From an uncultured Chloroflexia bacterium (lineage in GTDB: Bacteria; Chloroflexota; Limnocylindria; Limnocylindrales; CSP1-4): DNA of 64,000 nucleotides. The position numbers and the translations under genes were made by a program. Of this stretch, positions 21,513 to 60,585 are shown piece by piece (the first letter of the stretch is position 1; every line of letters starts with the position of its first letter). Location: NCBI GenBank assembly GCA_963728635.1, contig CAVSKR010000002.1, forward strand, positions 365,053-429,052, given 5' to 3'. Under the pieces are notes generated by a model, which saw only the letters and a program-made list of their open reading frames with translations, ran no database searches and was not told the origin of the DNA.

Positions 21513-22124
21513 ATGCTCGTCGCTGGGTGCATCGGTGGCGAAGCGGCTTCGACGATCACCCCGAGCGTCAGCAGCGCACCATCGGTCGCGGCACCCTCGG
21601 CGTCCGCATCGAGCGCGCCGACCACGGCGCCGACCGACGCACCGACCCTGGAGCCGACGCCTTCCGGCAGCCCCGCCGGATCGCCATCCGCGTCGCCGGC
21701 TGCGAATGCGGTCGACGGTTGTACCGGCACTGACGACAACCGCGCGTTCTTCGCCGAGGCCGCGGCCAACCTCGATTGGCCGGTGTACTGCCCCGCTCTC
21801 CCGGCCCGCTGGACGGTGAACACCGGCAGCTACAGCGGGCAGGGCGTCGGCCGGCTCGTCATCTCGTACAAGGGCCCGGGTGGCGCAAGCCTGTCCCTGC
21901 AGCAGGGTGCGTTCTGCAGCGACGCCGACGGCTGCGTCCCGGCCGGGACCGATTCCGGCGATGCGCCATTCGGGGATCAGAGCGGCACGATGGTCGTGGT
22001 CGACGGCGGCGGCTACGCGATCGTCGTGGATCGGGGCGCACAACCCAGCTGGCTCGTCGAGGGCCAGGGCCTCGACGAAGCCACCTTCCGGGCGTTCGTC
22101 GCCGACTTGATCCGCCTCGACTGA
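21513..22124 (+). CDS. Hypothetical lipoprotein (true start uncertain, probably upstream)
   Basis: VAGC lipobox, Ser/Pro/Ala linker, globular domain with paired Cys; in-frame signal-like RHRPTLPLLAVATVA precedes the ATG. Confidence 0.7.
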   Translation: MLVAGCIGGEAASTITPSVSSAPSVAAPSASASSAPTTAPTDAPTLEPTPSGSPAGSPSASPAANAVDGCTGTDDNRAFFAEAAANLDWPVYCPALPARWTVNTGSYSGQGVGRLVISYKGPGGASLSLQQGAFCSDADGCVPAGTDSGDAPFGDQSGTMVVVDGGGYAIVVDRGAQPSWLVEGQGLDEATFRAFVADLIRLD

Positions 22125-23072
22125 TCAGTCGGGACGCTGCTCTGCCGCGACGGCCTCTGCGAGCGCGGCTTCGGCCAGCGCAGCGACCGCATCGACCGTC
22201 GCTCCCATATCTGCGTCCTCGCGCGGCATGACCGCCGTGGCCCCGAAGCCGATGACTGGCGTACCGCTCGTCGCGATCGTTCGGACCGTGGCAACGGCCG
22301 TTCCGAGCGAGATGCCGTAGGCCTCGGGCGTCGCGACTGCCCACCCGCCGGAGGCGTCGAGGGCGTCCATATCGAACGCGATATACCACGCGTCGATCCG
22401 CTGCGCGATGATCGCGCTCCACGACGCGACGGCTGTCTGACCCGCGGCATCTGCCAGCATTCCCGCGCCGAACTGTGCGACCCCGCTCGCGGCAAGCACC
22501 CGCGATTCGGTCTCGTCGAGGACCTGGCCACCGAACAGCCCGGCATCGAGCTCCCGGACGGTCGGTCCCTCCGCCGCCGCGACCAGCTCCGCGTCGCCGC
22601 GACCGCAGGCCATCGCGAATGGCATGCCCCACACATTGCCCGACGGGGTGGTATCGGGCGTGTTGAAGTCGCCATGGGCGTCGAACCAGGCCAGCCCCAG
22701 GCGCATGCCCGGCCGAGCCCTGCGGATGCCCGCCATGGCCCCGGCGTGCGTCGTGCAATCGCCGCCGAGGACGAGGAGGCGCACGTCATCGCCGCCCTGG
22801 ACGAGTCCGGTCTGGACGTGGGTCGCGAGACGGCCGAGGTAAGCCACGATCCGATCGCGGTTCTTCGCCCGCGGATCGTCGTCGGCGACCCAGCCGGGTT
22901 CGTTGGCGGCGTCGCCGTGATCGAGCCACGTCTTCCCCGTCAACGCCGGACTCGCCGCGAGACGTTCGCGCAGGCCGAGCCGCCGAAGCTCGGTCGGGGC
23001 ACGCTCCATCCCGCCGAAATGGCCGCCCAGCGCGGTCGGGGAGCCGGCGACCACGATCGTCGGATCGGTCAC
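22125..23072 (-). CDS. Arginase/ureohydrolase family protein
   Basis: GGDCT, WFDAHGDFNTP, SGNVWGM, FDMDALD; GTG 23072. Confidence 0.88.
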   Translation of the reverse strand: MTDPTIVVAGSPTALGGHFGGMERAPTELRRLGLRERLAASPALTGKTWLDHGDAANEPGWVADDDPRAKNRDRIVAYLGRLATHVQTGLVQGGDDVRLLVLGGDCTTHAGAMAGIRRARPGMRLGLAWFDAHGDFNTPDTTPSGNVWGMPFAMACGRGDAELVAAAEGPTVRELDAGLFGGQVLDETESRVLAASGVAQFGAGMLADAAGQTAVASWSAIIAQRIDAWYIAFDMDALDASGGWAVATPEAYGISLGTAVATVRTIATSGTPVIGFGATAVMPREDADMGATVDAVAALAEAALAEAVAAEQRPD

Positions 23073-23122
23073 ACCTTCAGGATACCCATGCGGCAGCGAT
23101 CGACCTTCGCCATCATGTCGTG

Positions 23123-24247
23123 ATGCGGATCGCGGACTTCGCGCTCGAGCGCTTCTTCGCCCGCTGGGAGTTCGCCGTGGAGCACATGCTTTGCGCGTCC
23201 GACCTGCAGGGGTACCCGATGGCGGAGTTGCTCGGGCTGGCCGACCCCGAGACGCGCGCGTTGTGGGAGCAGCTGGCGCTCGGCTACACCGAATCGACCG
23301 GGCATCCGCTGTTGCGTCGCGAGATCGCCTCGCTGTACGACGGGATCCAACCCGACGACGTGTTGGTCTTCGCTGGTGCGGAGGAAGGGATCTTCTGCCT
23401 CGCGAACGTGGCACTCGGTCCGGGAGACCACGCGATCGTGACCTGGCCGGGGTACCAGAGCCTGTACGAAATCGCACGGGCGACGGGGGCGGATGTCACG
23501 CTCCACGAGCTCCGAGAGGACGCCGCCTGGGCGATCGACATCGATCTCCTCCGCCGCCAGCTGACGCCCGCCACTCGGATGATCGTCATCAACGCCCCAC
23601 ACAACCCGACCGGGATGCTGCCGGATCGCGCGACATTCGACGCGATCGTGGCCATCGCCGAGGAGAGCGGCGCGCACCTACTGGTGGACGAGGTCTACCG
23701 CTTCCTGGAGTTCGACGAGGCTGATCGCCTGCCTGCCGGTGCCGACGCGAGCGCTCGTGGGATCTCGCTCGGTGTCATGTCGAAGTCGTTCGCGATGGCC
23801 GGCCTGCGGATCGGCTGGCTTGCGACGCGCGATCGCGACCTCCTGGCGCGTTGCGCCTCGTTCAAGGACTACACGACGATCTGCTCGGCGGCGCCGTCCG
23901 AGGTGCTGGCGCTCATGGGCCTGCGCGCCCTCGACGCGGTCCTCGCCCGCTCGCGCCGGATCGTGACCGCGAACCTCGAGCGACTAGATGCGTTCTTCGA
24001 CGACTGGGCGGACCGGTTCACGTGGATCCGACCCAGGGCGGGGTCGGTCGGATTTCCGCGGCTGACCGTCCCGGGCGTCTCGATCGACGATTGGGCGGCG
24101 GGCCTGATCGAGGCCAAAGGCGTTCTCATCCTGCCCGGATCGCAATTCGGTTACGGCGGCAATCACTTCCGCCTGGGGTTCGGGCGGACGGATCTTCCGG
24201 TCGCGTTGGACCTGCTCGAGCAACACGCGCGTCGCACGCTTCGCTGA
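23123..24247 (+). CDS. PLP-dependent aminotransferase class I/II
   Basis: INAPHNPTG, VDEVYR, MSKSFAMAGLRIGW. Confidence 0.9.
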   Translation: MRIADFALERFFARWEFAVEHMLCASDLQGYPMAELLGLADPETRALWEQLALGYTESTGHPLLRREIASLYDGIQPDDVLVFAGAEEGIFCLANVALGPGDHAIVTWPGYQSLYEIARATGADVTLHELREDAAWAIDIDLLRRQLTPATRMIVINAPHNPTGMLPDRATFDAIVAIAEESGAHLLVDEVYRFLEFDEADRLPAGADASARGISLGVMSKSFAMAGLRIGWLATRDRDLLARCASFKDYTTICSAAPSEVLALMGLRALDAVLARSRRIVTANLERLDAFFDDWADRFTWIRPRAGSVGFPRLTVPGVSIDDWAAGLIEAKGVLILPGSQFGYGGNHFRLGFGRTDLPVALDLLEQHARRTLR

Positions 24248-24506
24248 ACCCTTTGCTCGACGACCCCTGCGGACCGTCCCACGCCGCCCCGCACGACCCC
24301 ACGACCGGTACCTTCGGACCTACCCGATCTGGGACGTTGCGTGGACGCACCGGTGCACCGCCGCACGGTCCTACCCGAAGGGTCCTACGCCGGGTACCAG
24401 TTTCTCCCTTAGCCGTTCGTCATGGACCACCTAGCGTTCGTCCTCCATCGGGGGATGGGCATCGCGTCTCAAGACGCGGCGCGCTTGGATCGAAAGGACA
24501 GCCGGG

Positions 24507-26206
24507 GTGGTCCGAACGAGGCGACATCAGCGTGCCGATCGACTTGCTGCCGCGTGGCTCGTGGCGCTCCTGTCGATCGCGTTCGCGCCGGTCGTGCCGT
24601 TCGGGTCCCAGGTCGCCGTCGCGGCATCGGCCACGACCGTCGACGTCTCCCCTGAGCTCGGCGCCGGCCCCACGGGGGGCGTCGTCGTCCTCACGGCGAG
24701 GGTCTACGACGAGAACGGTGACCTGCACGCGGGCGCGGGCACGTCGGTCCACGTGCGGTTCTTCTTCTCTTCGAGCAGCCCCAACGATATCGATAGCCCA
24801 GGGAACAGCTCGGATCTCGACTGTTCGACCGGCGACGCCGGCATGTGCACCGTCTCGTACACGGCGGATGTTGTCGGAACCGACTTCATCTGCGCCCTGA
24901 TCGGTGGCCCCACCTCGCAATGTGACGACGAGAACGTCGGCGATCCCGAGCGCAACGATCGAACCGACAAGGTCCAGCACGTCAACCCCGGCACGCCGAG
25001 CCCGACGCCCACGCCGACGCCCACGCCCAGCCCGACACCGACGCCGAGCCCCACGCCCACACCGACGCCCAGCCCGACGCCGACGCCGAGCCCCACACCG
25101 ACGCCCAGCCCCACGCCGAGCCCGACGCCGACGCCCAGCCCCACGCCGAGCCCGACGCCGACGCCCAGCCCCACGCCGACGCCCAGCCCGACGCCGACGC
25201 CGACGCCCAGCCCGACGCCGACGCCGACGCCCAGCCCGACGCCGACGCCGACGCCGACGCCCAGCCCCACGCCCAGCCCGACGCCGACGCCGACGCCCAG
25301 CCCCACGCCCAGCCCGACGCCGACGCCGACGCCCAGCCCCACGCCCAGCCCGACGCCGACGCCGACGCCCAGCCCCACGCCCAGCCCGACGCCGACGCCG
25401 ACGCCCAGCCCCACGCCCAGCCCGACGCCGACGCCGACGCCCAGCCCCACGCCCAGCCCGACGCCGACGCCCAGCCCCACGCCGAGCCCGACGCCGACGC
25501 CGACGCCCAGCCCGACGCCGACGCCCAGCCCGACGCCGACGCCGACGCCTAGCCCGACGCCGACGCCGACGCCGACGCCCAGCCCGACGCCGACGCCGAC
25601 GCCCGCACGCCCAGCCCGACGCCGACGCCGACGCCCAGCCCCACGCCCAGCCCGACGCCGACGCCGACGCCCAGCCCCACGCCCAGCCCGACGCCGACGC
25701 CGACGCCCAGCCCCACGCCCAGCCCGACGCCTTCGCCGGAAGCGTCACCCGAAACGGATCCGACCCCGTCGCCGTCGCCGACGCCGACCGTGGAACCCAC
25801 GCCGTCACCGGCGACGACCGGACCGATCCCGTCGACGACGCCTGACGACCCTGGGGCCGGTCCGGGGGGCTCCGGCGGCGGCACGACAACTGTCGGTTCC
25901 GGGAGTCAGGCCGAACCGGGCCCGGCGCCCACCGACCCACCCGATACCGGCCCGTTCGCAGCCCTGCCCGAGGCGGGCCTGTTCGTCCAGGGGCTCGTCG
26001 ATGGCGTTCGCGAGCGAGTCGCTGCGACCGTCCAACCGCAGGCGATCGTGGCCGTGGCTGAAGCGTTCAGCTTCCCGCTCGTCCTGATGGTCGCGGTCCT
26101 GCTGTTCCTGGTCGGTCAGTGGCGGATGGACGATCCGAAGTTCCGACTGGCCCCGCTGAGCAGGGCGGACACCACCATCGTGTTCGAGGAAAAGGGAGCG
26201 AGCTGA
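24507..26206 (+). CDS. Surface protein: signal peptide, Cys/Asp-rich Ig-like domain, long Pro-Thr-Ser stalk, C-terminal TM anchor (frameshift near 25605)
   Basis: GAAAGGA SD plus GTG; AVA cleavage site; repeat continues in another frame to [30 protein letters not shown]...stop 26206. Confidence 0.8.
24994..25790 (+). repeat. Coding low-complexity tandem array of CCGACG / CCCAGC / CCCACG units (PT/PS)
   Basis: About 0.8 kb of 6-nt-unit repeats encoding (PT)n(PS). Confidence 0.95.
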
Positions 26207-28671
26207 TGCAAGCAGCGGTCCGCCACGATTACACACCGCTCAGCGACCGCATGAACGCTCTCCTGGCGCTCCGGGTCGTGATGGCCGGATTCGTCCTCGT
26301 CTGGGCGTGGGTCCGCCCAGAGGTGAGCGCTGTCCCGCTCGACGCGGTCGCTGCGCTCAGCTTCGCCTACGTGGCCGCCAGCGTCGCCCTCGAGGCGAGT
26401 CGCCGGCGCTCCGGCCGGCGCGGGCTGTCGGTCATCACCGGGCTGCTCCTGGCAGATGGCGTGTACCTGATCGGCGCGATGTATCTGACCGGGGGGATGG
26501 GCAGCCCGATCCGCTTCCTCGTCTATCTCCACCTCGTCGCGGTATCTCTCCTCGCCTCGTATCGGACCGGCCTCAAGCTCGCGTTCTGGGACTCGCTATT
26601 GCTCCTGGTCGTCCTCTATGCCCAGGCGGCGCAGCTGATGCCGGCGGTCGACGTCATGCCCGGCCAGGCGATCGAGTTCGAGCAGATGCCGATCGCCAAC
26701 CTCATCTCGTTCTGGTTGTTCGCGCTCGCGACGTCGGTCTTTTCGGCGATGAACGAGCGCGAGCTGCGCCAGCGCCGCGCGGACCTGCAGGCGCTAGTTG
26801 ACGTCGGCGCTCGTCTCGACGACGTGACCGACCCTGTGCGTCAGTCGAACCTCGTGCTGGGGGGACTCGTCGACCGGTTCGGCTTCCCGCGCGGCGTCGT
26901 GCTCGGGTCGGTCGATGACCGGATGGTCATCCTCGCCGCGAGCGGGGTCGACGCGCCGCCGACGGCCTCGGCCGTCCCGGACGCGATCGTCGCCCGAGCG
27001 CTATCGGGTCGAGAGACCATCGCGATCCGCGCCATGGATCCAGCGCTCGATCCGTTCCTGACCGCCGTGATGCCCGATGCGGTGAACCTTCTCGTCGCCC
27101 CGATGGTGGCCGATGGCCGCGCCGTCGGCGCGATCGTGGTCGAGCATCCGTCGCGCATCCTCCGCCGCGTCGACCGGCGCGTCACGACCGTACTCGAGCA
27201 GATGTGTGCGATGGCCGCGCTCAACCTGCGGAATGCCGTCCTGCTGCGACATGTGCAGGACCTGGCTGAGCGCGATGCGTTGACCGGTGCCGCGAACCGG
27301 CGCACCTTCCAGCTCCAGCTCGAGAACGTGCTCGACGGTCGGGAGCTTCGAGACCGAGAGTCGATCACGACCGTGCTGTTCATCGACCTCGACGACTTCA
27401 AGGTCGTCAACGACACGCTGGGCCATGCGGCCGGCGACGGGCTCCTGCAGGCCGTGACGGAACGGCTCACCGACTCGGTGAGGGACGGCGACCTCGTCGC
27501 GCGCCTCGGTGGCGATGAGTTCGCGATCCTGACGAGTGATGGGCCGGACCTGAAGCGCTCGCTGGCGATGGCCGAGCGGCTCACCCGCGAGCTCCGAGCG
27601 CCGTACATGATCGGCGAGAAGACCATCACGGTCTCGGCCAGCATCGGCATCGCGAGTGGCCGCGACCTGAGCGAGAGCGCCGCCGACGTCGTGCGCAATG
27701 CCGACGTCGCGATGTACATGGCCAAGGCCAACGGCAAGGCCGGCTATGCCGTCTTCGACCCCGGCATGCACGCGGCCATCCGTGAGCGCCACGAGATGGG
27801 TGTCCAGCTCCAGCACGCCGTGGAGCTCGGCCAATTGCGACTTGCGTACCAGCCGATCGTCGACCTCACCGATGACAGCCTGGTGGGCGTCGAGGCGCTC
27901 GTCCGCTGGCAGCACCCGGACCGCGGCGTGGTCTCGCCCGGTGAGTTCATCGAGATCGCGGAGGAGAACGGCGCGATCCTGCCGATCGGCCGGTGGATCC
28001 TGCGGGAAGCCTGCCGCGAGGCGATGTCCTGGTCGAACATGGACCGCTCGGCGTTCCTGTGCGTGAACGTGTCCGCCCGGGAGATCCAGCAGCCGGGCTT
28101 CGTCACAGCGGTCCGCGAGGCGCTCGGTGAGGCAGGCATGGCTGCATCTCGACTGAGCCTCGAGATCACGGAGACGGCCCTCCTTCGAGCCACCCCGAAG
28201 ACGATCTCGACGCTCGAGTCACTGCGCACGCTCGGCGTCCGCATCGTCATCGACGACTTCGGCACCGGCTACTTCTCGCTGAGCCATCTCCGCCAGTTCC
28301 CGGTCGACGTCCTCAAGATCGCCAGCGAGTTCGTACAGGTGCCGGACAGCGACGCCAGGACGGCTGCCCTCGCCGGCGCCATCGTTGCGATGGGTCGTTC
28401 GCTCGAGATCCGGACCGTGGCCGAAGGGATCGAGACCGCCGAACAGGCTGAGCGGATGCGGGCCCTTGGCTGCGCCTACGGGCAGGGCTTCCACTTCGCC
28501 CAGCCGATCCCGGGCAGCGAGGTCGCCGCCGGCGCTTTCGACGCGATGATGGGCGCCGATCGACCGGCGCCCGATGTGGTCGAGGCTCCTCCGGCACCGG
28601 TGTTCCGCGCCCCGTTCGGCGGTTTCAGTCGACGTCGGACTGCCGCCCGCACGGACGTCAGCCCCGCCTGA
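26206..28671 (+). CDS. Membrane-anchored GAF-like/GGDEF/EAL protein
   Basis: Multi-TM N-terminus with TGGMGSP; RDGD-LVARL-GGDEF; VEALVRW, LEITE, DDFGTGYFS, AEGIE, QGF; TGATG overlap with surface-protein gene. Confidence 0.93.
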   Translation: MQAAVRHDYTPLSDRMNALLALRVVMAGFVLVWAWVRPEVSAVPLDAVAALSFAYVAASVALEASRRRSGRRGLSVITGLLLADGVYLIGAMYLTGGMGSPIRFLVYLHLVAVSLLASYRTGLKLAFWDSLLLLVVLYAQAAQLMPAVDVMPGQAIEFEQMPIANLISFWLFALATSVFSAMNERELRQRRADLQALVDVGARLDDVTDPVRQSNLVLGGLVDRFGFPRGVVLGSVDDRMVILAASGVDAPPTASAVPDAIVARALSGRETIAIRAMDPALDPFLTAVMPDAVNLLVAPMVADGRAVGAIVVEHPSRILRRVDRRVTTVLEQMCAMAALNLRNAVLLRHVQDLAERDALTGAANRRTFQLQLENVLDGRELRDRESITTVLFIDLDDFKVVNDTLGHAAGDGLLQAVTERLTDSVRDGDLVARLGGDEFAILTSDGPDLKRSLAMAERLTRELRAPYMIGEKTITVSASIGIASGRDLSESAADVVRNADVAMYMAKANGKAGYAVFDPGMHAAIRERHEMGVQLQHAVELGQLRLAYQPIVDLTDDSLVGVEALVRWQHPDRGVVSPGEFIEIAEENGAILPIGRWILREACREAMSWSNMDRSAFLCVNVSAREIQQPGFVTAVREALGEAGMAASRLSLEITETALLRATPKTISTLESLRTLGVRIVIDDFGTGYFSLSHLRQFPVDVLKIASEFVQVPDSDARTAALAGAIVAMGRSLEIRTVAEGIETAEQAERMRALGCAYGQGFHFAQPIPGSEVAAGAFDAMMGADRPAPDVVEAPPAPVFRAPFGGFSRRRTAARTDVSPA

Positions 28672-28825
28672 CCTGGCCTGGCCAGGACCGCAGGGGCCCG
28701 ACGAGTAGATCGCCCCGCTGCCTCAGTGTCGCTCACAGGCACGATGTCGCCATCAGCGACGTGCCGGGAGCATGCTGTCCGGATCGCGTCGCCTCACCAA
28801 CGCTCCCCGGGTGAAGGCGGGGGAA

Positions 28826-29317
28826 TCACGCGGCGCCAAGCGCCACAACGGGTCGACCGAAGGCGAGACGGCGGGCAGCGTCCAGGAGCGAGCGAGGCGT
28901 CGATCGGCCGTGCCAGCCCAACGCGCGGGCCGGAGTCAGCCGGATGGTCGTTGCATAGGTGGCGGCGAACTCGGCCGGTGTCAGGCCGAGCGCTTCGATC
29001 CGGTCGCGGTACTTGGCGAGGAACGGTTCGGGCAGCGCGGCCTCGTGCTCGACGACCTCGGCCCGTGCCTCGAGGAGCCCGACGTCGAAATCGTCGTCGG
29101 CGTCGCCGAGCGCCAGCATCGCGCGCGGGTCGCGCCGGAGGTTCCGGACCTTGGTCGCTTCCGGCTTCGAGCGGATCACGATCGCCTCGCCGTCCCAGGC
29201 GAACCACGTCGGCACCAGGTGCGGCGCACCGTTACCTCGGATCGACGACAGCCAGACCACCGGTTCCATTTCGAGGAACCGCTGGACGCGCAGGGCGGCG
29301 AGAGTCGGGCTGTCCAT
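28826..29317 (-). CDS. Pyridoxamine 5'-phosphate oxidase-like (probably F420-binding) protein
   Basis: VWLSSIRGNGAPHLVPTWF, KVRNLRRDPR. Confidence 0.8.
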   Translation of the reverse strand: MDSPTLAALRVQRFLEMEPVVWLSSIRGNGAPHLVPTWFAWDGEAIVIRSKPEATKVRNLRRDPRAMLALGDADDDFDVGLLEARAEVVEHEAALPEPFLAKYRDRIEALGLTPAEFAATYATTIRLTPARALGWHGRSTPRSLLDAARRLAFGRPVVALGAA

Positions 29318-29395
29318 GGCCGCAGCATCGGGCGCCACATCGGGACCGGCCGCGGACGCCGGTCGGGGACCGGCATGGACAAGTGTCGCGTCGGG

Positions 29396-29899
29396 TCAGC
29401 GACCCTTGTCGCCGCCGAGCGCGCCGCCGAGCCCGCCGAGCAGGTCGTCCAGGTTGCCGGTGCCGGGCCCGCCGGCCGTTCCGCCCATGAGACCGCCCAG
29501 GAGGCCGCCCAGGTCGCCGAGTCCGCCGCTGCCCAACGCGCTGTCGAGGCCGCCGTCCGGCGTCCGGCCGTTCGGGGTCAGCATGTTGATGAGCTGCGGC
29601 AGGAACGCTGCGAGGAGCGGGAGCAGCGCCTGGATGTCGAGGCCCGTACCGTTCGACAGCCGCTGGACCGTCTCGGGTCCGAGCGCGCTGCCCAGCCGCT
29701 GCGGATCGACCGGCTGGTTCTCACCCGTCGACACCCACGAGTCGACCTCGTCGTTCAGACCGCCCTCGCGGAGCCTGCCGACCAGCCCGTCGAGGCCACC
29801 AGTCTCGTCGATCGCGCCGGCCAGGTCGCCCATGGTGGCGCCGACATCGGCCCCGCCTGCCGGGCCGAGCCCGCGGCTCAGGTTGGAGAGATCATCCAT
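29396..29899 (-). CDS. YidB/DUF937 family protein
   Basis: GGLDGLVGRL, VDSWVSTGENQPV, LPQLINMLTPNG; Gly-rich tail. Confidence 0.85.
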   Translation of the reverse strand: MDDLSNLSRGLGPAGGADVGATMGDLAGAIDETGGLDGLVGRLREGGLNDEVDSWVSTGENQPVDPQRLGSALGPETVQRLSNGTGLDIQALLPLLAAFLPQLINMLTPNGRTPDGGLDSALGSGGLGDLGGLLGGLMGGTAGGPGTGNLDDLLGGLGGALGGDKGR

Positions 29900-32320: not shown

Positions 32321-33340
32321 CTACCGTAGACCCATCTTGTGGCGGACCTCGTCCATGGTCGCCTCGGCGATCGGGCGCACCCGCTCGGCGCCCTCGGTGA
32401 GGATCGACTCGATCCGTGCCGGATCGGCCATCAGCTCCCGGTAGCGCTCGCGCGCCTCTGCGTACCGTGCCAGCACCCGATCCGCGAGCAGCTTCTTCGT
32501 ATCGACGCAGCCGGTCCGCGCCGTCCGCTCACCATCCCAGATCTCCTCGTAGTCGTCGCCGAAGGACCGGTGGAGCTGGCACACGTTGCAGACCTCGGGA
32601 CGGCCCGGGTCCGTTCGCAGGATCCGCTTCGTGTCGGTGACCATGCTCATGATCTGCTTCCGGATCTCGTCCTCCGGCGCGAAGATGTCGATGGTGTTGC
32701 CGAGCGATTTGCTCATCTTGCGGACGCCGTCGGTGCCGAGGATGATCGGCGATTCGGTGAAGACGGGCTGGGGCTCGGGAAACGTGTCGCCGTAGCGGTT
32801 GTTGAACGACCGCACGATCTCGCGCGACAGCTCGAGATGGGCGACCTGGTCCTTGCCCACCGGTACGAGCGACGCCTTGTAGATGACGATGTCGGCGGCC
32901 TGCAGGACCGGGTAGGTCAGCAGCCCGTGGTTGATGTCATCAGGCTGGTACTGGCGCTTCTCCTTGTAGGTCGGTGTTCGCTCGAGCCAGCTGACCGGGG
33001 TCACCGTCATCAAGAGCCAGGCGAGCTCCGTATGCTCGGGTCGGTGGCTCTGGACGAACAACGTGCAGCGCTCGGGGTCGAGCCCGAGGGCCAGCAGACC
33101 GGCGGCCATCTCACGTGTCTGGCGGCGGAGCACATCGGCGTCGTGCAGGCTCGTGAGCGCGTGGTAGTCGACGATGCAGTAGATCGCCTCGTATTCCCAC
33201 TGGAGCTTCACGTAGTTTCGGATCGCGCCTAGGTCGTTCCCGATGTGGGGCACCCCGGTGGGCTGGATGCCGGAGAAGATCCGGGGTCTCGGGGCGGCCT
33301 CAGCCACGGGCGACGGAGCGGGCAGGATCTCGGTCGTCAT
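32321..33340 (-). CDS. trpS: Tryptophan--tRNA ligase
   Basis: FSGIQPTG.PHIGN, YPVLQAADI, VPVGKDQ, KMSKS. Confidence 0.98.
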   Translation of the reverse strand: MTTEILPAPSPVAEAAPRPRIFSGIQPTGVPHIGNDLGAIRNYVKLQWEYEAIYCIVDYHALTSLHDADVLRRQTREMAAGLLALGLDPERCTLFVQSHRPEHTELAWLLMTVTPVSWLERTPTYKEKRQYQPDDINHGLLTYPVLQAADIVIYKASLVPVGKDQVAHLELSREIVRSFNNRYGDTFPEPQPVFTESPIILGTDGVRKMSKSLGNTIDIFAPEDEIRKQIMSMVTDTKRILRTDPGRPEVCNVCQLHRSFGDDYEEIWDGERTARTGCVDTKKLLADRVLARYAEARERYRELMADPARIESILTEGAERVRPIAEATMDEVRHKMGLR

Positions 33341-57214: not shown

Positions 57215-59286
57215 ATGGGCCTCGAATCGGAGCTCGCGGAGCGGCTCGACAGCGTCCTCGGCATCGCCGAGCGACTCGCCGCGTCGCACGACCGGCAGGA
57301 ACTGTTCCGGACGATCGTCGACGAGACGAAACGGGCCCTCCGGGTCGACTACGTCGACGATCCGGATCCTGCGCGATGACCAGCTCGTACGTCGCAGCGT
57401 GGGCGGGCCTGCCCGACGACGTCGCCACCGCCCTGCCCGTCATTCGGCGTCGGCGAGGGCTGGGTCGGCGAGGTGCTGCGGACCGGGCGGGCCGCCGCGT
57501 GGACCGGACACGCGCACGGATCGGCCGGTACGGCAGCGAACGAGTACGACGGGATCCTCGAGTTCGCGGGCGACCTCATCGCGCCGCTCATGCACCACGA
57601 CCGGGTGATCGGGGCGCTGTCGGCGGTGACCCGCGAGCCGCGCGCAATGGACCGACGGCGACGTCGCCTTTCTCACGACGCTCGCGACCCACGCCGCGAT
57701 CGCCCTGACCAACGCCGAGCTCTTCGAGCAGACCGAGGCGAAGGCCGCCCAGCTGACCGTCCTCCAGGCGGCCTCGGGCCGGCTCAGCCGCGCGACGCTC
57801 GGTCGAGGCGGTCGGGCGAGCCCTGGTCGAGGAGACGCGCCGGATCATCGACTACCACAACGCGCGCGTGTACCTCATCGAGCTGCCCGACCAGGTCGTG
57901 CCGATCGCATTCGAGGGACGCGTGGGAGCCTACGAGCATGTCGATCTCGACCTCCTGCGCTGCCGGCTCGGCGAGGGCTTCACCGGCTGGGTCGCGCAGC
58001 ACGGCGAGCCGCTCCTGATCAACGACGCCAACCGCGATCCGCGGGGACAGACGATCGCCGGCACCGACGACATCGACGAATCGATGCTCGTCGTCCCGAT
58101 GCGCTACGACGAGGAGACCGTCGGCGTGATCACGCTGTCGAAGCTCGGTCTGGACGGTTTCGACGGGGACGACCTGCGGCTTCTGGCCATCCTCGCGGAC
58201 CACGCCGCGACCGCGCTCGAGACGGCCCGGCTGCTGAGCCGGAGCCAGGAGCTCGCGCTGGAGCTGCGGCGGATGCTCGACATGAGCGGCGAGCTCTCGG
58301 AGAGCCTCGACCCGCGTCAGGTCGCGAACCTGATGGCAGGCCACCTCGCCCGGGCGATGGGCGTCGATGAATGCGCCATCAGCTACTGGGATCGACCGTC
58401 CGGGCGGGTCGAATCACTCGGCTACTACCCACTGCTCGACGAGCTCGAGCCGTACTTCGAGGTCGACGGCTTTCCGGAAACGCTGCGTGTCCTCGAGCGG
58501 CAGGTCACGGTCATCATCGACGCCGAGGACACCCGCGCCGATCCGGCCGAGGTGGCCCTCCTGCGGCGCGACGGCATCCGCATGCTCGTGATGCTTCCGC
58601 TCGTCGCCAAGGGCCAGTCGATCGGCCTCGTCGAGCTGTTCTCGCGCGCCGAGGCACGCTGGGATGCCCAGCGCCTCGAAGTCGCGCGGACGATGGCCAA
58701 CGAGGCGGCCATGGCCCTCGAGAACGCGCGGCTGTACGAGGACGCCCGCAAGCGCGCGGACCGCGACCCGCTGACCGGCTTCTTCAACCACCGCTACCTG
58801 CATGAGCGGATGGGGGAGGAGGTCGTCCGGTCGCAGCGGGGCAAGCGCCCGCTGAGCCTGATGATGCTCGACCTCGACGATTTCAAGCTCGTGAACGACA
58901 CGTTCGGACACCTGTTCGGCGACCGCGTCCTGACCTGGGCGGCCGAGCTGATCAAGGCCACCCTCCGCACGTCGGACGTGCCGGCCCGGTACGGCGGCGA
59001 CGAGTTCGCCGTGATCCTGCCCGACACCGATGCTGCGGATGCGGTCCACGCTGCCGAGCGGATCCTCGCGGCGTTCCGCGATCGCCCATTCATCGGCGAG
59101 CAGCGCGGCCCGGTCCCGATCGCCGCTTCGATCGGCGTGGCGACGTTCCCCGCCGACGGTCGCACGGCGACCGAGTTGATCGCGTGTGCCGACCGGCGTC
59201 TTTACCAGGTCAAGCGTGACGGCGGTCACGGTCGGGCGACCGGCGCGGATGGCACGGCCGAGGACTCCGCCGAGCCGGTCGCGTAG
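57215..59286 (+). CDS. Multi-GAF diguanylate cyclase (N-terminal region frameshifted; start approximate)
   Basis: GGAGG+ATG 57215; three GAF-like segments (APLMHHDRVIGAL, VPMRYDEETVGVI, LPLVAKGQSIG); RTSD-VPARY-GGDEF. Confidence 0.85.
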
Positions 59287-59382
59287 GCGGACCAGGACGG
59301 AAGTACCAGGCCGCATCCCCCATCGGTACCATCCCGCGCTAGTGGACGCGGCGGGGTCTGGGTCGCATCCTTAACTCCCGAG

Positions 59383-60585
59383 TTGACCCGCTCCACCCAG
59401 CGCCCCGCGCGCCCCGTGGACCCGTCGGATCGCCGGATCCGTCGGTCCTGGTGGACCTTCTCCGTCGCCTTCCTCCTCGTTGTCGTCGTGGTCCTCCTCC
59501 GCGCCCTTGCCGCGGATGCGACGCTCGCCGACCGGTTGCTGCTGGTGGTCATGCTGGTTGCCGGTTTCGCGGCGTTCGTCCACGGTGCCGCCGTTGCCGA
59601 CCTCGGCGCCCGGCGACGCGACGAGGCCGAATCGTTCGCGCGGATCCTGAGTGGCTTGTCACGCTCCGTGTCGCCCGATGCGATCGTCGACGCCATCGCC
59701 GAGGACCTCGGTCAGGCCACGGCCGCCGACCACGTCGTGGTGGTCCGACGAGCGGAGGACGACCGGGAGCTCGCCGCGCACCTCGTGAGCCTCCGCCCGG
59801 GTGTGCCGGATCACTCGACGCCGCTCCCGCTCGGCGACCTGGAGGACCCCGTCCGGGGCCGACCGGCGACCCCTGCCGAGGCCGCTGACCGGATCGCCCG
59901 CCGGGTCCGCGACGTCTACGGGCTCGGACAGGTGCTGGCCGCTCCGCTGACGACCGTGGATGGCGTCGTGGGCGCCCTCGTCGTTTCGCGCCGGGTCGGC
60001 TCGACGTGGCCGGAATCCACGCGTCGGATCCTGGGCGGCGCGGCGATCGAAGCGTCGGCGGCGCTCGCCCGAGCCTACTCTCACCGCGACGCGGAGGCGC
60101 GCGCCTCCACCGATGCGCTCACGGGGCTGCCCAACCGCCGCTACTTCGACGAGTTCGTGGGCCTGCTGGCGCAGCGTCGCCGGGCCGGGGACGCGGTCGG
60201 GATCCTGATGGTCGACATCGACCGGTTCAAGGCCCTCAACGACAAGCACGGGCACGCGACCGGCGATGCGGTGCTGCGTGCGGTGGCCGGTGCGATCGTG
60301 TCCGCGGTGCGCGAGGACGATGTGCCTGCGCGCTTCGGCGGGGAGGAGTTCGTCGTGCTGCTGCGCAACCCGGATCCGGGAGTCGCGGTCGAGGTCGGTG
60401 AGCGGATCCGCGCCGCGGTCCGCGGGCTCGACCTGCGCCACCTCGCGGTCCCGGCGCCGAGCGTGTCGATCGGTGTCGCGGTCGCGACCCGCCCGGACGA
60501 GGACATCGAATCGCTCATCGATATCGCCGACCAGGCGCTCTACCGGGCGAAGCGGGCCGGGCGCGATCGGGTGGTCGCCGCGTAG
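59383..60585 (+). CDS. Membrane GAF-GGDEF diguanylate cyclase
   Basis: Two N-terminal TM helices; DALTGLPNRR, DIDRFK, REDD-VPARF-GGEEF. Confidence 0.9.
   Translation: MTRSTQRPARPVDPSDRRIRRSWWTFSVAFLLVVVVVLLRALAADATLADRLLLVVMLVAGFAAFVHGAAVADLGARRRDEAESFARILSGLSRSVSPDAIVDAIAEDLGQATAADHVVVVRRAEDDRELAAHLVSLRPGVPDHSTPLPLGDLEDPVRGRPATPAEAADRIARRVRDVYGLGQVLAAPLTTVDGVVGALVVSRRVGSTWPESTRRILGGAAIEASAALARAYSHRDAEARASTDALTGLPNRRYFDEFVGLLAQRRRAGDAVGILMVDIDRFKALNDKHGHATGDAVLRAVAGAIVSAVREDDVPARFGGEEFVVLLRNPDPGVAVEVGERIRAAVRGLDLRHLAVPAPSVSIGVAVATRPDEDIESLIDIADQALYRAKRAGRDRVVAA

Follow-up and report, generated by a model that had tools for sequence, protein, structure and literature searches.

What does a stalked surface protein do when its stop codon shares a base with the start codon of a membrane-bound enzyme of cyclic di-GMP (c-di-GMP) metabolism? 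This question is raised by a locus in contig CAVSKR010000002.1 of an uncultured member of the Limnocylindria (Chloroflexota), which we analyzed within a stretch of 64,000 nucleotides with about 70% G+C, here called the window. The locus consists of a surface-protein gene (24507-26206, + strand), with a GTG start, a TGA stop at 26204-26206 and two reading frames as assembled, and a partner gene (26206-28671, +), whose 821-residue product displays six transmembrane (TM) helices followed by GAF, GGDEF and EAL domains in Pfam, NCBIfam and Protein Data Bank sequence matches. The architecture of both proteins, their linkage, their co-conservation, the swapping of the ectodomain, the overlap of stop and start codons and the state of the catalytic motifs were all computed here. 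We propose, with a probability that we put at just under 0.6, that the pair is a functional unit which acts through contact between the C-terminal tail of the surface protein and the six-helix (6TM) domain of the enzyme.

The pairing itself is found far beyond the window. A scan of the GTDB species representatives with the enzyme sequence recovered 526 relatives; the best 80 of these, at 60-94% identity, come nearly all from metagenome-assembled genomes (MAGs) of Chloroflexia/Chloroflexota or Ca. Limnocylindria/Limnocylindrales, many of them long-read “MFD” soil assemblies, and place the window in the Limnocylindria and not among the actinobacteria. Each of the 84 Limnocylindria loci with upstream DNA has the tail directly 5' of the enzyme gene, a count from which one further locus that starts inside the enzyme gene was left out. 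The weaker matches in an exhaustive scan with the tail profile carry a related tail of actinobacterial appearance (F-x-F-P-[LIM]-x-L...Q-x-R-I-D-R-R-D-P-K-L-[RA]-x-A-P-x-D-S...F), and two independent genome scans, covering two separate tail subfamilies, gave 22 loci in Actinomycetota, 20 of them with enough downstream DNA to be informative. The hosts include Solirubrobacteraceae, Frankiaceae, Modestobacter and Pilimelia. At 19 of the 20 informative loci the tail is followed by a gene for a 6TM-GAF-GGDEF protein devoid of an EAL domain, and the 6TM domains of these partners match that of the window with E = 1e-24 to 1e-50. An initial sequence-only reading of this DNA had pointed to a tail of the form FPL...Q.R.D..DPKL on actinobacterial proteins encoded next to GGDEF genes, and had named a tail that is not conserved or not linked to such genes as what would speak against its proposal; the actinobacterial motif is verified here, and both conservation and linkage are seen in the two phyla. 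All the traits that we propose for the family, namely the C-terminal FxFP-L-V-FL-Q helix, the D.RDPKL motif and a 6TM-GAF-GGDEF gene at the stop codon, are present in the window.

The pair is also kept when its neighbors are not. In two members of the syntenic group of the window (L001 and L003), it is flanked by an aminotransferase gene upstream and a convergent YidB/PNPOx-SurE block downstream, while in the relative L002 genes for an extracytoplasmic function (ECF) sigma factor and an A2M/Big_5 protein occur upstream and FtsX-domain genes downstream. Two modules per genome occur in at least two MAGs (L090 with L092 and L073 with L077). Six Actinomycetota loci (L102-L107, e.g., L105:514-4985) show the order cyclase, tail protein, cyclase, the additional upstream gene being a paralogous 6TM-GAF-GGDEF gene; this order suggests either a tandem duplication or the presence of two receivers for each anchor.

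The two genes meet at a coupling junction (26188-26208, +) made up of the Shine-Dalgarno-like GGAAAAGGGAG (26188-26198), which sits 8 nt 5' of the ATG at 26206 and is a possible Shine-Dalgarno sequence of the partner gene, and of TGATG, in which the stop (26204-26206) and the start (26206-26208) have one base in common; the overlap of this TGA and ATG that had been noted from the letters alone is a single base. Overlaps of this type are a family trait: 73 of the 77 distinct Limnocylindria junctions overlap, 61 of them by 4 nt (GTGA, ATGA or TTGA) and 12 by 1 nt (TGATG), and in Actinomycetota the start overlaps the tail stop by 4 nt in 16 of the 18 junctions examined. Such an overlap of stop and start is typical of subunits that are made at a fixed ratio.

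The C-terminal module of the surface protein comprises three consecutive elements: an extracellular juxtamembrane amphipathic helix of 21 residues (25967-26029, +), which is conserved among the Limnocylindria in our alignments; a 31-residue helix with the single TM segment (26036-26128, +); and a cytoplasmic tail of 27 residues (26120-26203, +) with the family consensus xRxDxRDPKLRxAP...F.EE..L. An AlphaFold2 model built with 39 tail sequences predicts the juxtamembrane helix (model residues 2-22) with a per-residue confidence (pLDDT) above 80, a break at Pro25, a continuous helix across residues 25-55 with a pLDDT of 91-95, and a less ordered tail. The sequence-only reading had rightly recognized a tail behind the TM segment, but the version that it quoted is 16 residues too short, the stop codon being the TGA at 26204-26206. 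The consensus of the module in Limnocylindria is V-K-P-x-A-A-x-A-V-A-x-x-F-x-F-P-L-x-L-x-x-A-V-x-x-F-L-x-x-Q-x-R-x-D-x-R-D-P-K-L-R-x-A-P-...-F-x-x-E-x-x-L. The clade of the window is distinguished by a 2-residue deletion in the tail motif (RMD--DPKF), and the window tail matches the Limnocylindria profile with E = 5e-30 and the Actinomycetota profile with E = 5e-14.

Among 82 distinct tails from the two phyla the Q at the end of the membrane stripe is invariant. Near-invariance extends, counting back from this Q, to F(-17), F(-15), P(-14), L(-13), L(-11), V(-7), F(-4) and L(-3), with variable positions in between. In the window this stripe, F-x-F-P-L-x-L-x3-V-x2-F-L-x2-Q, corresponds to 26066-26119 within the TM helix. 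The conservation moment of the 82 tails is maximal at 100 degrees per residue; hence, it is one face of an α-helix that is conserved. Conservation of this kind is far in excess of the needs of a mere membrane anchor.

The counterpart of the tail in our proposal is the N-terminal six-helix membrane domain of the enzyme (26206-26770, +), defined by alignment over the two phyla. No other part of the locus is as constrained, the ratios of nonsynonymous to synonymous substitution rates (dN/dS) being 0.03-0.08 for this domain. Across both phyla R15, R23, D84 (in the middle of TM3), T95, R120, G122, W128, N183-E184 and R188 are invariant and G96, S100-P101 and S118-Y119-x-T121-x-x-K124 are nearly invariant, the invariant polar residues being located in the membrane and in the cytoplasmic loops. 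Through hydropathy and the positive-inside rule, we predict that the N-terminus and the RRRSGRR, SYRTGLK and NERELR segments are cytoplasmic and that TGGxxSP faces outward. The domain is reminiscent of the membrane sensor domain of PilS: 33 of 37 6TM domains of the family match the Pfam model PF25323 (6TM_PilS) at E <= 1 and over nearly its full length, the best of them with E = 3.3e-7. The window domain aligns with model positions 7-177 of 189 at E = 0.0045 and scores 17.1 bits, as against a gathering cut-off of 27.

While tail and 6TM domain are retained, the ectodomain is not. In Limnocylindria the same tail is attached to a domain with four cysteines, as in the window (in tandem in L031), to VWA domains with a DxSGS metal site together with DUF11/DUF7507, or to domains without a Pfam match. 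The Actinomycetota ectodomains include arrays of 1400-2000 residues made of Big_13 and other immunoglobulin (Ig)-like repeats, and such arrays are typical of adhesins. The swapping of the ectodomain on a retained tail and 6TM domain indicates that the constant part of the system is the stalk-plus-anchor design with its partner, and that the binding domain is the variable part.

The catalytic portion of the partner begins with a GAF domain (26854-27234, +; Pfam GAF, E = 1.4e-4, 22.8 bits against a cut-off of 22.4, with weaker GAF_2 and GAF_3 matches), followed by a GGDEF domain (27268-27738, +; PF00990, E = 1.2e-41, 142.7 bits against a cut-off of 23.8) and an EAL domain (27805-28506, +; PF00563, E = 3.2e-72, 243 bits). 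Its best matches among solved structures are RmcA (5m3c, 2.5e-96) and MorA (4rnh, 4e-91), with DosP also recovered, and its NCBIfam matches are confined to sub-threshold ones to named GGDEF-EAL enzymes. The GGDEF motif (27508-27522, residues 435-439) has an RxxD I-site, RDGD (27481-27492, residues 426-429), five residues upstream. Both are intact in 85 of 85 Chloroflexota orthologues; the Actinomycetota partners keep the catalytic GG(D/E)EF motif, and the RxxD is found in all 11 of their motifs that were scored. The EAL domain contains the EAL glutamate, Asn, ExxE, DDFGTG, Lys, Glu and Gln residues. Its loop 6 reads DDFGTGYFS (28252-28278), with a Ser-to-Phe change common to all 85 orthologues, and K-x-D is replaced by KIA (28315-28323), an Asp-to-Ala change at a metal-2 ligand in an ungapped alignment to the “KID” of RmcA and MorA; K(I/V)A, too, occurs in 85 of 85. 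The four motifs that the sequence-only reading had listed for this protein (GGDEF, RxxD, DDFGTGYFS and KIA) are therefore all located in the 821-residue product. The residue of PA3825 that is equivalent to the changed Ala, Asp183, coordinates the M2 Mg2+ ion (PMC5301497). Judging by these motifs, hydrolysis by the EAL domain may be weakened or differently regulated, and the KIA together with the loop 6 change could mark an EAL subclass with an altered metal dependence. Elsewhere in the window, about 30 kb downstream, two tandem genes (57757-59283 and 59287-60582, both +) code for GGDEF domains related to that of the partner (E = 1e-23 and 6e-21). The former also shows a weak GAF match, and neither has a detected 6TM domain or a tail-bearing neighbor.

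Put together, these features can be accommodated in a single scheme, in which the two genes would specify a translationally coupled, two-protein membrane signaling module. The stalk would present the variable ectodomain beyond the wall, and the conserved C-terminal module would hold the protein in the membrane, where the anchor helix would pack on the 6TM bundle and the cytoplasmic xRxDxRDPKLRxAP motif would contact the conserved cytoplasmic loops SYRTGxK and NERELR. The state or abundance of the surface protein, as changed by engagement of a ligand or a surface, by a pull on the stalk, or by its loss or shedding, would then be relayed via the GAF linker and would set the level of diguanylate cyclase activity and, in Limnocylindria, its balance with phosphodiesterase activity. 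Conservation of the 6TM domain together with the tail over two phyla, in the face of free exchange of the ectodomain, favors communication between tail and 6TM domain, as the sequence-only reading had supposed when it let the TM segment and tail talk to the membrane domain of the partner; the physical contact, the outside-in direction and the enzymatic outcome are inferred. Signaling from the outside in, triggered by a bound ligand or by tension on the stalk, is favored because the juxtamembrane helix is conserved and because synthesis at a fixed ratio leaves a sensor of mere inventory little to measure.

More tentatively, and at somewhat less than even odds, the tail could be a new, portable “plug-in” that docks any exported ectodomain, be it Ig-like, VWA or a giant adhesin array, onto a PilS-like six-helix diguanylate cyclase, thereby making a dedicated sensor of surface contact or ligands in Chloroflexota and Actinomycetota that acts directly on c-di-GMP and is widespread in soil (about 1180 clusters). 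If this is true, the plug-in would match the pilin-PilS and pilin-PleC routes of the Proteobacteria in a single step that spans the wall. The inputs of most bacterial GGDEF/EAL proteins are unknown, and how signals from beyond the wall are linked to c-di-GMP outside the Proteobacteria is poorly understood. The present pair offers a testable input, an anchor module of about 60 residues with a six-helix receiver, in two abundant soil phyla, for which evolution has already made the domain swaps; the annotation of the family is corrected along the way. Should docking be confirmed, extracellular binding domains of choice could be linked by way of the tail to an output in c-di-GMP.

Several observations weigh against a unit that acts through tail-6TM contact. 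Adjacent genes may also be conserved together simply because they descend from the same ancestor, and the roughly 100 gene pairs at hand are too few for an analysis of inter-protein covariation. The similarity to PilS lies mostly under the Pfam gathering score, for which reason we treat the 6TM domain as a distant relative of PF25323 and not as a member. The codons for E-E-x-L at the end of the tail (GAGGAG...CTGTGA; 26185-26206 in the window and the junctions of L001-L084) double as the Shine-Dalgarno sequence of the partner and its overlapping GTG or ATG start, so part of the conservation of E-E-x-L may be due to a constraint at the DNA level, imposed by the embedded GAGGAG and the overlapping start. 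One protein, L091:3346-6207, ends in a tail with Q-SRIDRRDPKL but without FxFP, and has no adjacent cyclase, the downstream gene being convergent and unrelated. The same tail occurs in L093:611-2308, where the contig ends before a neighboring gene becomes visible; the variant anchor of these two reads ELPLGIAAVVVLFLLxQSRIDRRDPKLA, and on the basis of such sequences the Q-x-R-I-D-R-R-D-P-K-L motif may be used more widely than in this gene pair. Finally, the surface-protein gene of the window is not open throughout: frame 0 is open to 25604, and the Pro/Thr reading resumes in the frame of 25607.

The last of these points bears on whether an anchored protein is made at all, and requires a closer look at the gene. 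Its GTG at 24507 is preceded at a distance of 8 nt by GAAAGGA (24492-24498, +), which reads as a possible Shine-Dalgarno sequence. By open reading frame (ORF) and translation, the 5' part in frame 0 (24507-25604, +) encodes the signal peptide, the four-Cys domain and most of the stalk, and matches a profile of its orthologues with E = 8e-94. The 3' part in the frame of 25607 (25607-26206, +) supplies the end of the stalk, the linker, the juxtamembrane helix, the TM segment, the tail and the TGA. The Sec-type signal peptide (24507-24626, +; residues 1 to about 40), recognized in a Kyte-Doolittle scan and conserved in the orthologues, has a basic N-region, a hydrophobic core at residues 13-31 and a cleavage-like AVAA/S site. 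Next comes the four-Cys ectodomain of about 120 residues (24633-24989, +), with cysteines at residues 106, 114, 129 and 139 and Asp-rich loops. The Pro/Thr/Ser stalk of about 250 residues is encoded by imperfect tandem repeats of 6, 24 and 36 nt (24992-25731, +), identified with Tandem Repeats Finder and from the translations; beyond the repeat a linker rich first in P/T/S/E and then in G/P extends to about 25960. Signal peptide, four-Cys domain, stalk and TM segment with tail are thus all present, as the sequence-only reading had it, and the product is probably a Sec-exported type I membrane protein whose stalk crosses the cell wall.

The break falls into the repeat, at 25605-25606 (+), where ACGCCC-GC-ACGCCCAGC has two extra bases, GC, or equally one missing base. 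Read without the extra GC, the gene would code for an intact protein of 565 residues. The sequence-only reading had flagged position 25605 and had noted that no anchor would be made if the frameshift were real. That the break is genuine, with the gene split or dead in this strain and no anchored protein produced, is a reading that draws on the three closest long-read relatives (L001, L002 and L003), which like the window are frame-broken within the repeat, and on the failure to find a read set that spans the site: at most 34% of the sampled words of the locus are present in public read runs, none of whose contigs spans 25605-25606, and the short contigs from the best public runs pile up on the repeat and originate in unrelated genomes. 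The window enzyme likewise has no exact match in public assemblies. However, the positions of the breaks differ between these genomes, and contigs spanning the gene carry a single ORF in 14 of 15 short-read cases as against 24 of 49 long-read ones (Fisher p = 0.002); an example is L004, a Joint Genome Institute (JGI) contig, in which signal peptide, four-Cys domain, stalk and tail lie in one ORF of 442 residues. Between the window and frame-broken relatives, dN/dS is 0.15-0.42 for the N-domain and 0.17-0.24 for the tail region, at dS of 0.37-0.90, and these low values on both sides of the break imply purifying selection on both. In the long-read loci L011:4307-5992 and L053:2762-5983 the frame is open throughout, with Arg-rich out-of-frame stretches inside the Pro/Thr tract, and such stretches flanked by in-frame Pro/Thr are the signature of paired, compensating consensus errors. 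A tail fragment without a signal peptide would, moreover, have the wrong topology. From this pattern of sequences the break is most likely a long-read assembly error, a pseudogene is disfavored, and we consider a genuine break quite improbable. As a separate observation, GC-rich Pro/Thr repeats appear to be consensus-error hot spots in these long-read MAG assemblies. The low-coverage long-read contig L005:1-13042, many of whose genes are fragmented, including an arginase-family gene and the enzyme gene (split into calls of 294 and 358 residues), illustrates the level of error in some of the assemblies compared.

Granted an anchored protein, the flow of information could still run the other way. 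The enzyme would then be a LapD-like receptor that binds c-di-GMP at its RxxD I-site or its impaired EAL domain and alters the conformation, retention or release of the adhesin via the 6TM domain. The intact I-site, the adhesin-like nature of many of the surface proteins (Big_13 arrays, VWA) and the occurrence of KIA in every one of the 85 Limnocylindria orthologues, with which the EAL domain may bind rather than hydrolyze c-di-GMP, are in keeping with this. We regard it as unlikely, though: the Actinomycetota partners lack the EAL domain altogether and retain GG(D/E)EF, which argues, as far as motifs can tell, that the conserved core of the module is an active cyclase and not a receptor; all the other catalytic residues of the EAL domain are present; and the genes around the pair include no conserved protease or release machinery. 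Nor is it any likelier that the 6TM domain merely counts the anchored protein and adjusts c-di-GMP to its amount, as PilS does with pilin, the ectodomain being free of any signal. The PilS-like character of the 6TM domain, with PilS and PleC as precedents, and the free exchange of ectodomains, which fits a reading of the anchor only, are offset by the overlapping codons, which fix the ratio of sensor to ligand, so that shedding or degradation of the anchored protein would be needed to give the sensor much to measure, and by the conserved extracellular juxtamembrane helix, which suggests that information arrives from outside.

Two further readings would do away with signaling through the tail, and we deem both highly improbable. 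One takes the tail for a signal of sorting or processing at the C-terminus, like LPXTG, PEP-CTERM or GlyGly-CTERM, with the 6TM domain or an unlinked enzyme cleaving the protein or transferring it to the wall. The layout of the tail, a short motif, a TM helix and a basic cluster, is indeed like that of known signals, the tail is found at the C-termini of very different surface proteins, and several polar residues of the 6TM domain (D84, S100, S118 and R120) are invariant. Yet no sorting-signal model of NCBIfam or Pfam matches at E <= 1; the 64-kb window contains the tail just once and the MAGs sampled have one or two copies, with no substrate family; the conserved 27-residue tail continues behind the TM segment, whereas sorting signals stop at the basic cluster; and the family that the 6TM domain matches is one of sensors rather than of proteases or transpeptidases. 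Of the “interaction or sorting motif” that the sequence-only reading had considered, conservation has thus been borne out and sorting is disfavored, on account of the missing curated model, the long tail, the few copies and the sensor-family neighbor. The other is that there is no functional coupling, the tail being a lineage-specific anchor in an inherited operon arrangement without protein contact. It takes its strength from the fact that genomic association is what is at hand and that related genomes share gene order by descent. Against it, the pair has persisted where the flanking synteny changed, where the ectodomain was replaced, where an EAL domain was lost or gained, and across two phyla, be it by transfer or by divergence; the codon overlap is conserved throughout, and one face of the anchor helix is nearly invariant.

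Known systems offer partial parallels to the proposed tail-6TM module. In Pseudomonas aeruginosa, the six TM segments of PilS bind the single-pass pilin PilA directly in the membrane (PMC6058289). The likeness lies in a six-helix membrane sensor domain, of which the window 6TM is a distant sequence relative. The output of PilS is, however, a histidine kinase in place of GAF-GGDEF(-EAL), what it binds is the helix at the N-terminus of a type IV pilin and not the C-terminal anchor of a Sec-exported protein, and there is no translational coupling between the pilin and PilS genes. Contact of Caulobacter with a surface raises c-di-GMP by way of a pilin TM helix of 17 residues, which activates PleC-PleD (PMC7196804). 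Here, too, the TM helix of a surface-structure subunit (the CIP helix of PilA) is an input to c-di-GMP, but the route is indirect, through the sensor kinase PleC, with its two TM helices and its periplasmic domain, and then a response-regulator cyclase, and the CIP helix has no sequence relationship to the window tail.

The LapA/LapD/LapG system of Pseudomonas fluorescens, which the sequence-only reading had invoked, resembles the pair in tying a membrane GGDEF-EAL protein to a large surface adhesin, and this comparison holds as a loose analogy, every test of membership that we tried having failed. LapD, a receptor that has no catalytic activity but carries HAMP and periplasmic domains, acts on the protease LapG and not on the anchor of the adhesin; LapA is a repeats-in-toxin (RTX) adhesin of a type I secretion system (T1SS) that is retained in the outer membrane, whereas the window protein has a Sec signal and a C-terminal TM segment, and the hosts of the present pair are Chloroflexota and Actinomycetota. 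The partner has an intact GGDEF motif, scores 140.6 bits with the LapD model NF045673 against a cut-off of 1020, and shows no HAMP or LapD periplasmic (LapG-binding) domain in a Pfam scan. Among the syntenic neighbors with Pfam calls there is no protease, though no dedicated LapG search of the whole window was made.

Accessory envelope proteins encoded in the same operon set the activity of the YfiN cyclase in YfiBNR (TpbB) and of the WalK kinase in WalK-YycHI, where YycH and YycI act through TM-helix contacts; YfiR, though, is periplasmic and soluble, and the parts of both systems are unrelated to the present pair and are not known to carry a swappable, stalked, adhesin-like ectodomain. In PilY1-SadC, a surface-exposed VWA protein is proposed to relay mechanical contact to a membrane cyclase. 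Several loci orthologous to ours carry a VWA ectodomain on the same tail; PilY1, however, sits at the tip of the pilus and exerts its effect via the pilus alignment complex, and neither an anchor motif nor a gene pairing is known to be shared. Control by accessory proteins or intramembrane ligands is already known, while the components found here, the fact that they are paired with a cyclase, the exchangeable ectodomain and the host phyla have not been described. MSDGC-1/DcpA, RmcA, MorA and RbdA share the catalytic cassette of the partner, but are devoid of this 6TM input domain and of a coupled gene for an anchor-bearing protein, and differ from the window enzyme, in whose family KIA is general; the soluble mycobacterial GAF-GGDEF-EAL enzymes (MSDGC-1/DcpA) are listed as active dual-domain proteins (PMC13492106). 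CdgE of Streptomyces was considered as an equivalent and ruled out, being a soluble GAF-GGDEF protein of 382 residues. In the literature library that was searched, no paper combines Limnocylindria with c-di-GMP.

The family owes its obscurity to annotation. With the last 109 residues of the surface protein as the query, a search of a database of 5.8 billion proteins returned 35 proteins down to E = 3.5e-45, well outside what chance would give, all of them ORF calls of 61-137 residues. A word search with a profile of diverse tails raised this number to 444, all 120 of the matches listed being C-terminal fragments as well, and an exhaustive scan with the tail profile gave 1180 cluster representatives at E <= 1e-3, 132 of them at E <= 1e-10. 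Gene callers place a spurious ORF of 185-211 residues (“GVGVGLGVG...”) on the strand opposite the Pro/Thr repeat (L001:5020-5631, L002:4946-5581 and L003:5325-5882, all on the - strand; 24704-25480, -, in the window), and in public data the true gene is almost always cut down to its last 60-140 residues, which are listed as a hypothetical protein by themselves. It is this splitting of the gene that makes the family invisible to Pfam and NCBIfam, neither of which has a model that matches the tail at E <= 1. A profile scan of the window finds the one copy of the tail; a second weak “RRDPKL” match (33114-33299, -) was dismissed as chance, since it lies in an alternative frame of a tryptophanyl-tRNA synthetase gene.

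The four-Cys domain, for which a word search reached 13 close homologues, has no Pfam or NCBIfam match at E <= 1. Its AlphaFold2 model is all-β with seven strands arranged in an Ig-like sandwich, and is of moderate confidence (pLDDT 65.7; predicted TM-score, pTM, 0.60). Foldseek returns no match to this model at E <= 1e-3 and only weak Ig-like neighbors such as filamin, intimin D00-D0 and macroglobulin domains (best E 0.066; TM-scores 0.41-0.52), and the domain can accordingly be named no more closely than as a predicted Ig-like β-sandwich. Around the locus, Rfam recognizes no riboswitch or other RNA element at E <= 1 in 23500-29500, a consensus scan of 24200-28900 for promoters and terminators gave nothing that exceeds the shuffled expectation, and none of the public RNA runs searched for co-transcription contains the stretch.

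Upstream of the pair, the gene at 21513-22124 (+) encodes a small protein with the N-terminus MLVAGCIGG, a linker rich in Ala, Ser, Pro and Thr and a Cys-rich C-terminal domain. It has no Pfam call in the syntenic records and may be a lipoprotein, and we see no relation between it and the module. An arginase-family gene (22125-23477) stands between this gene and the aminotransferase gene.

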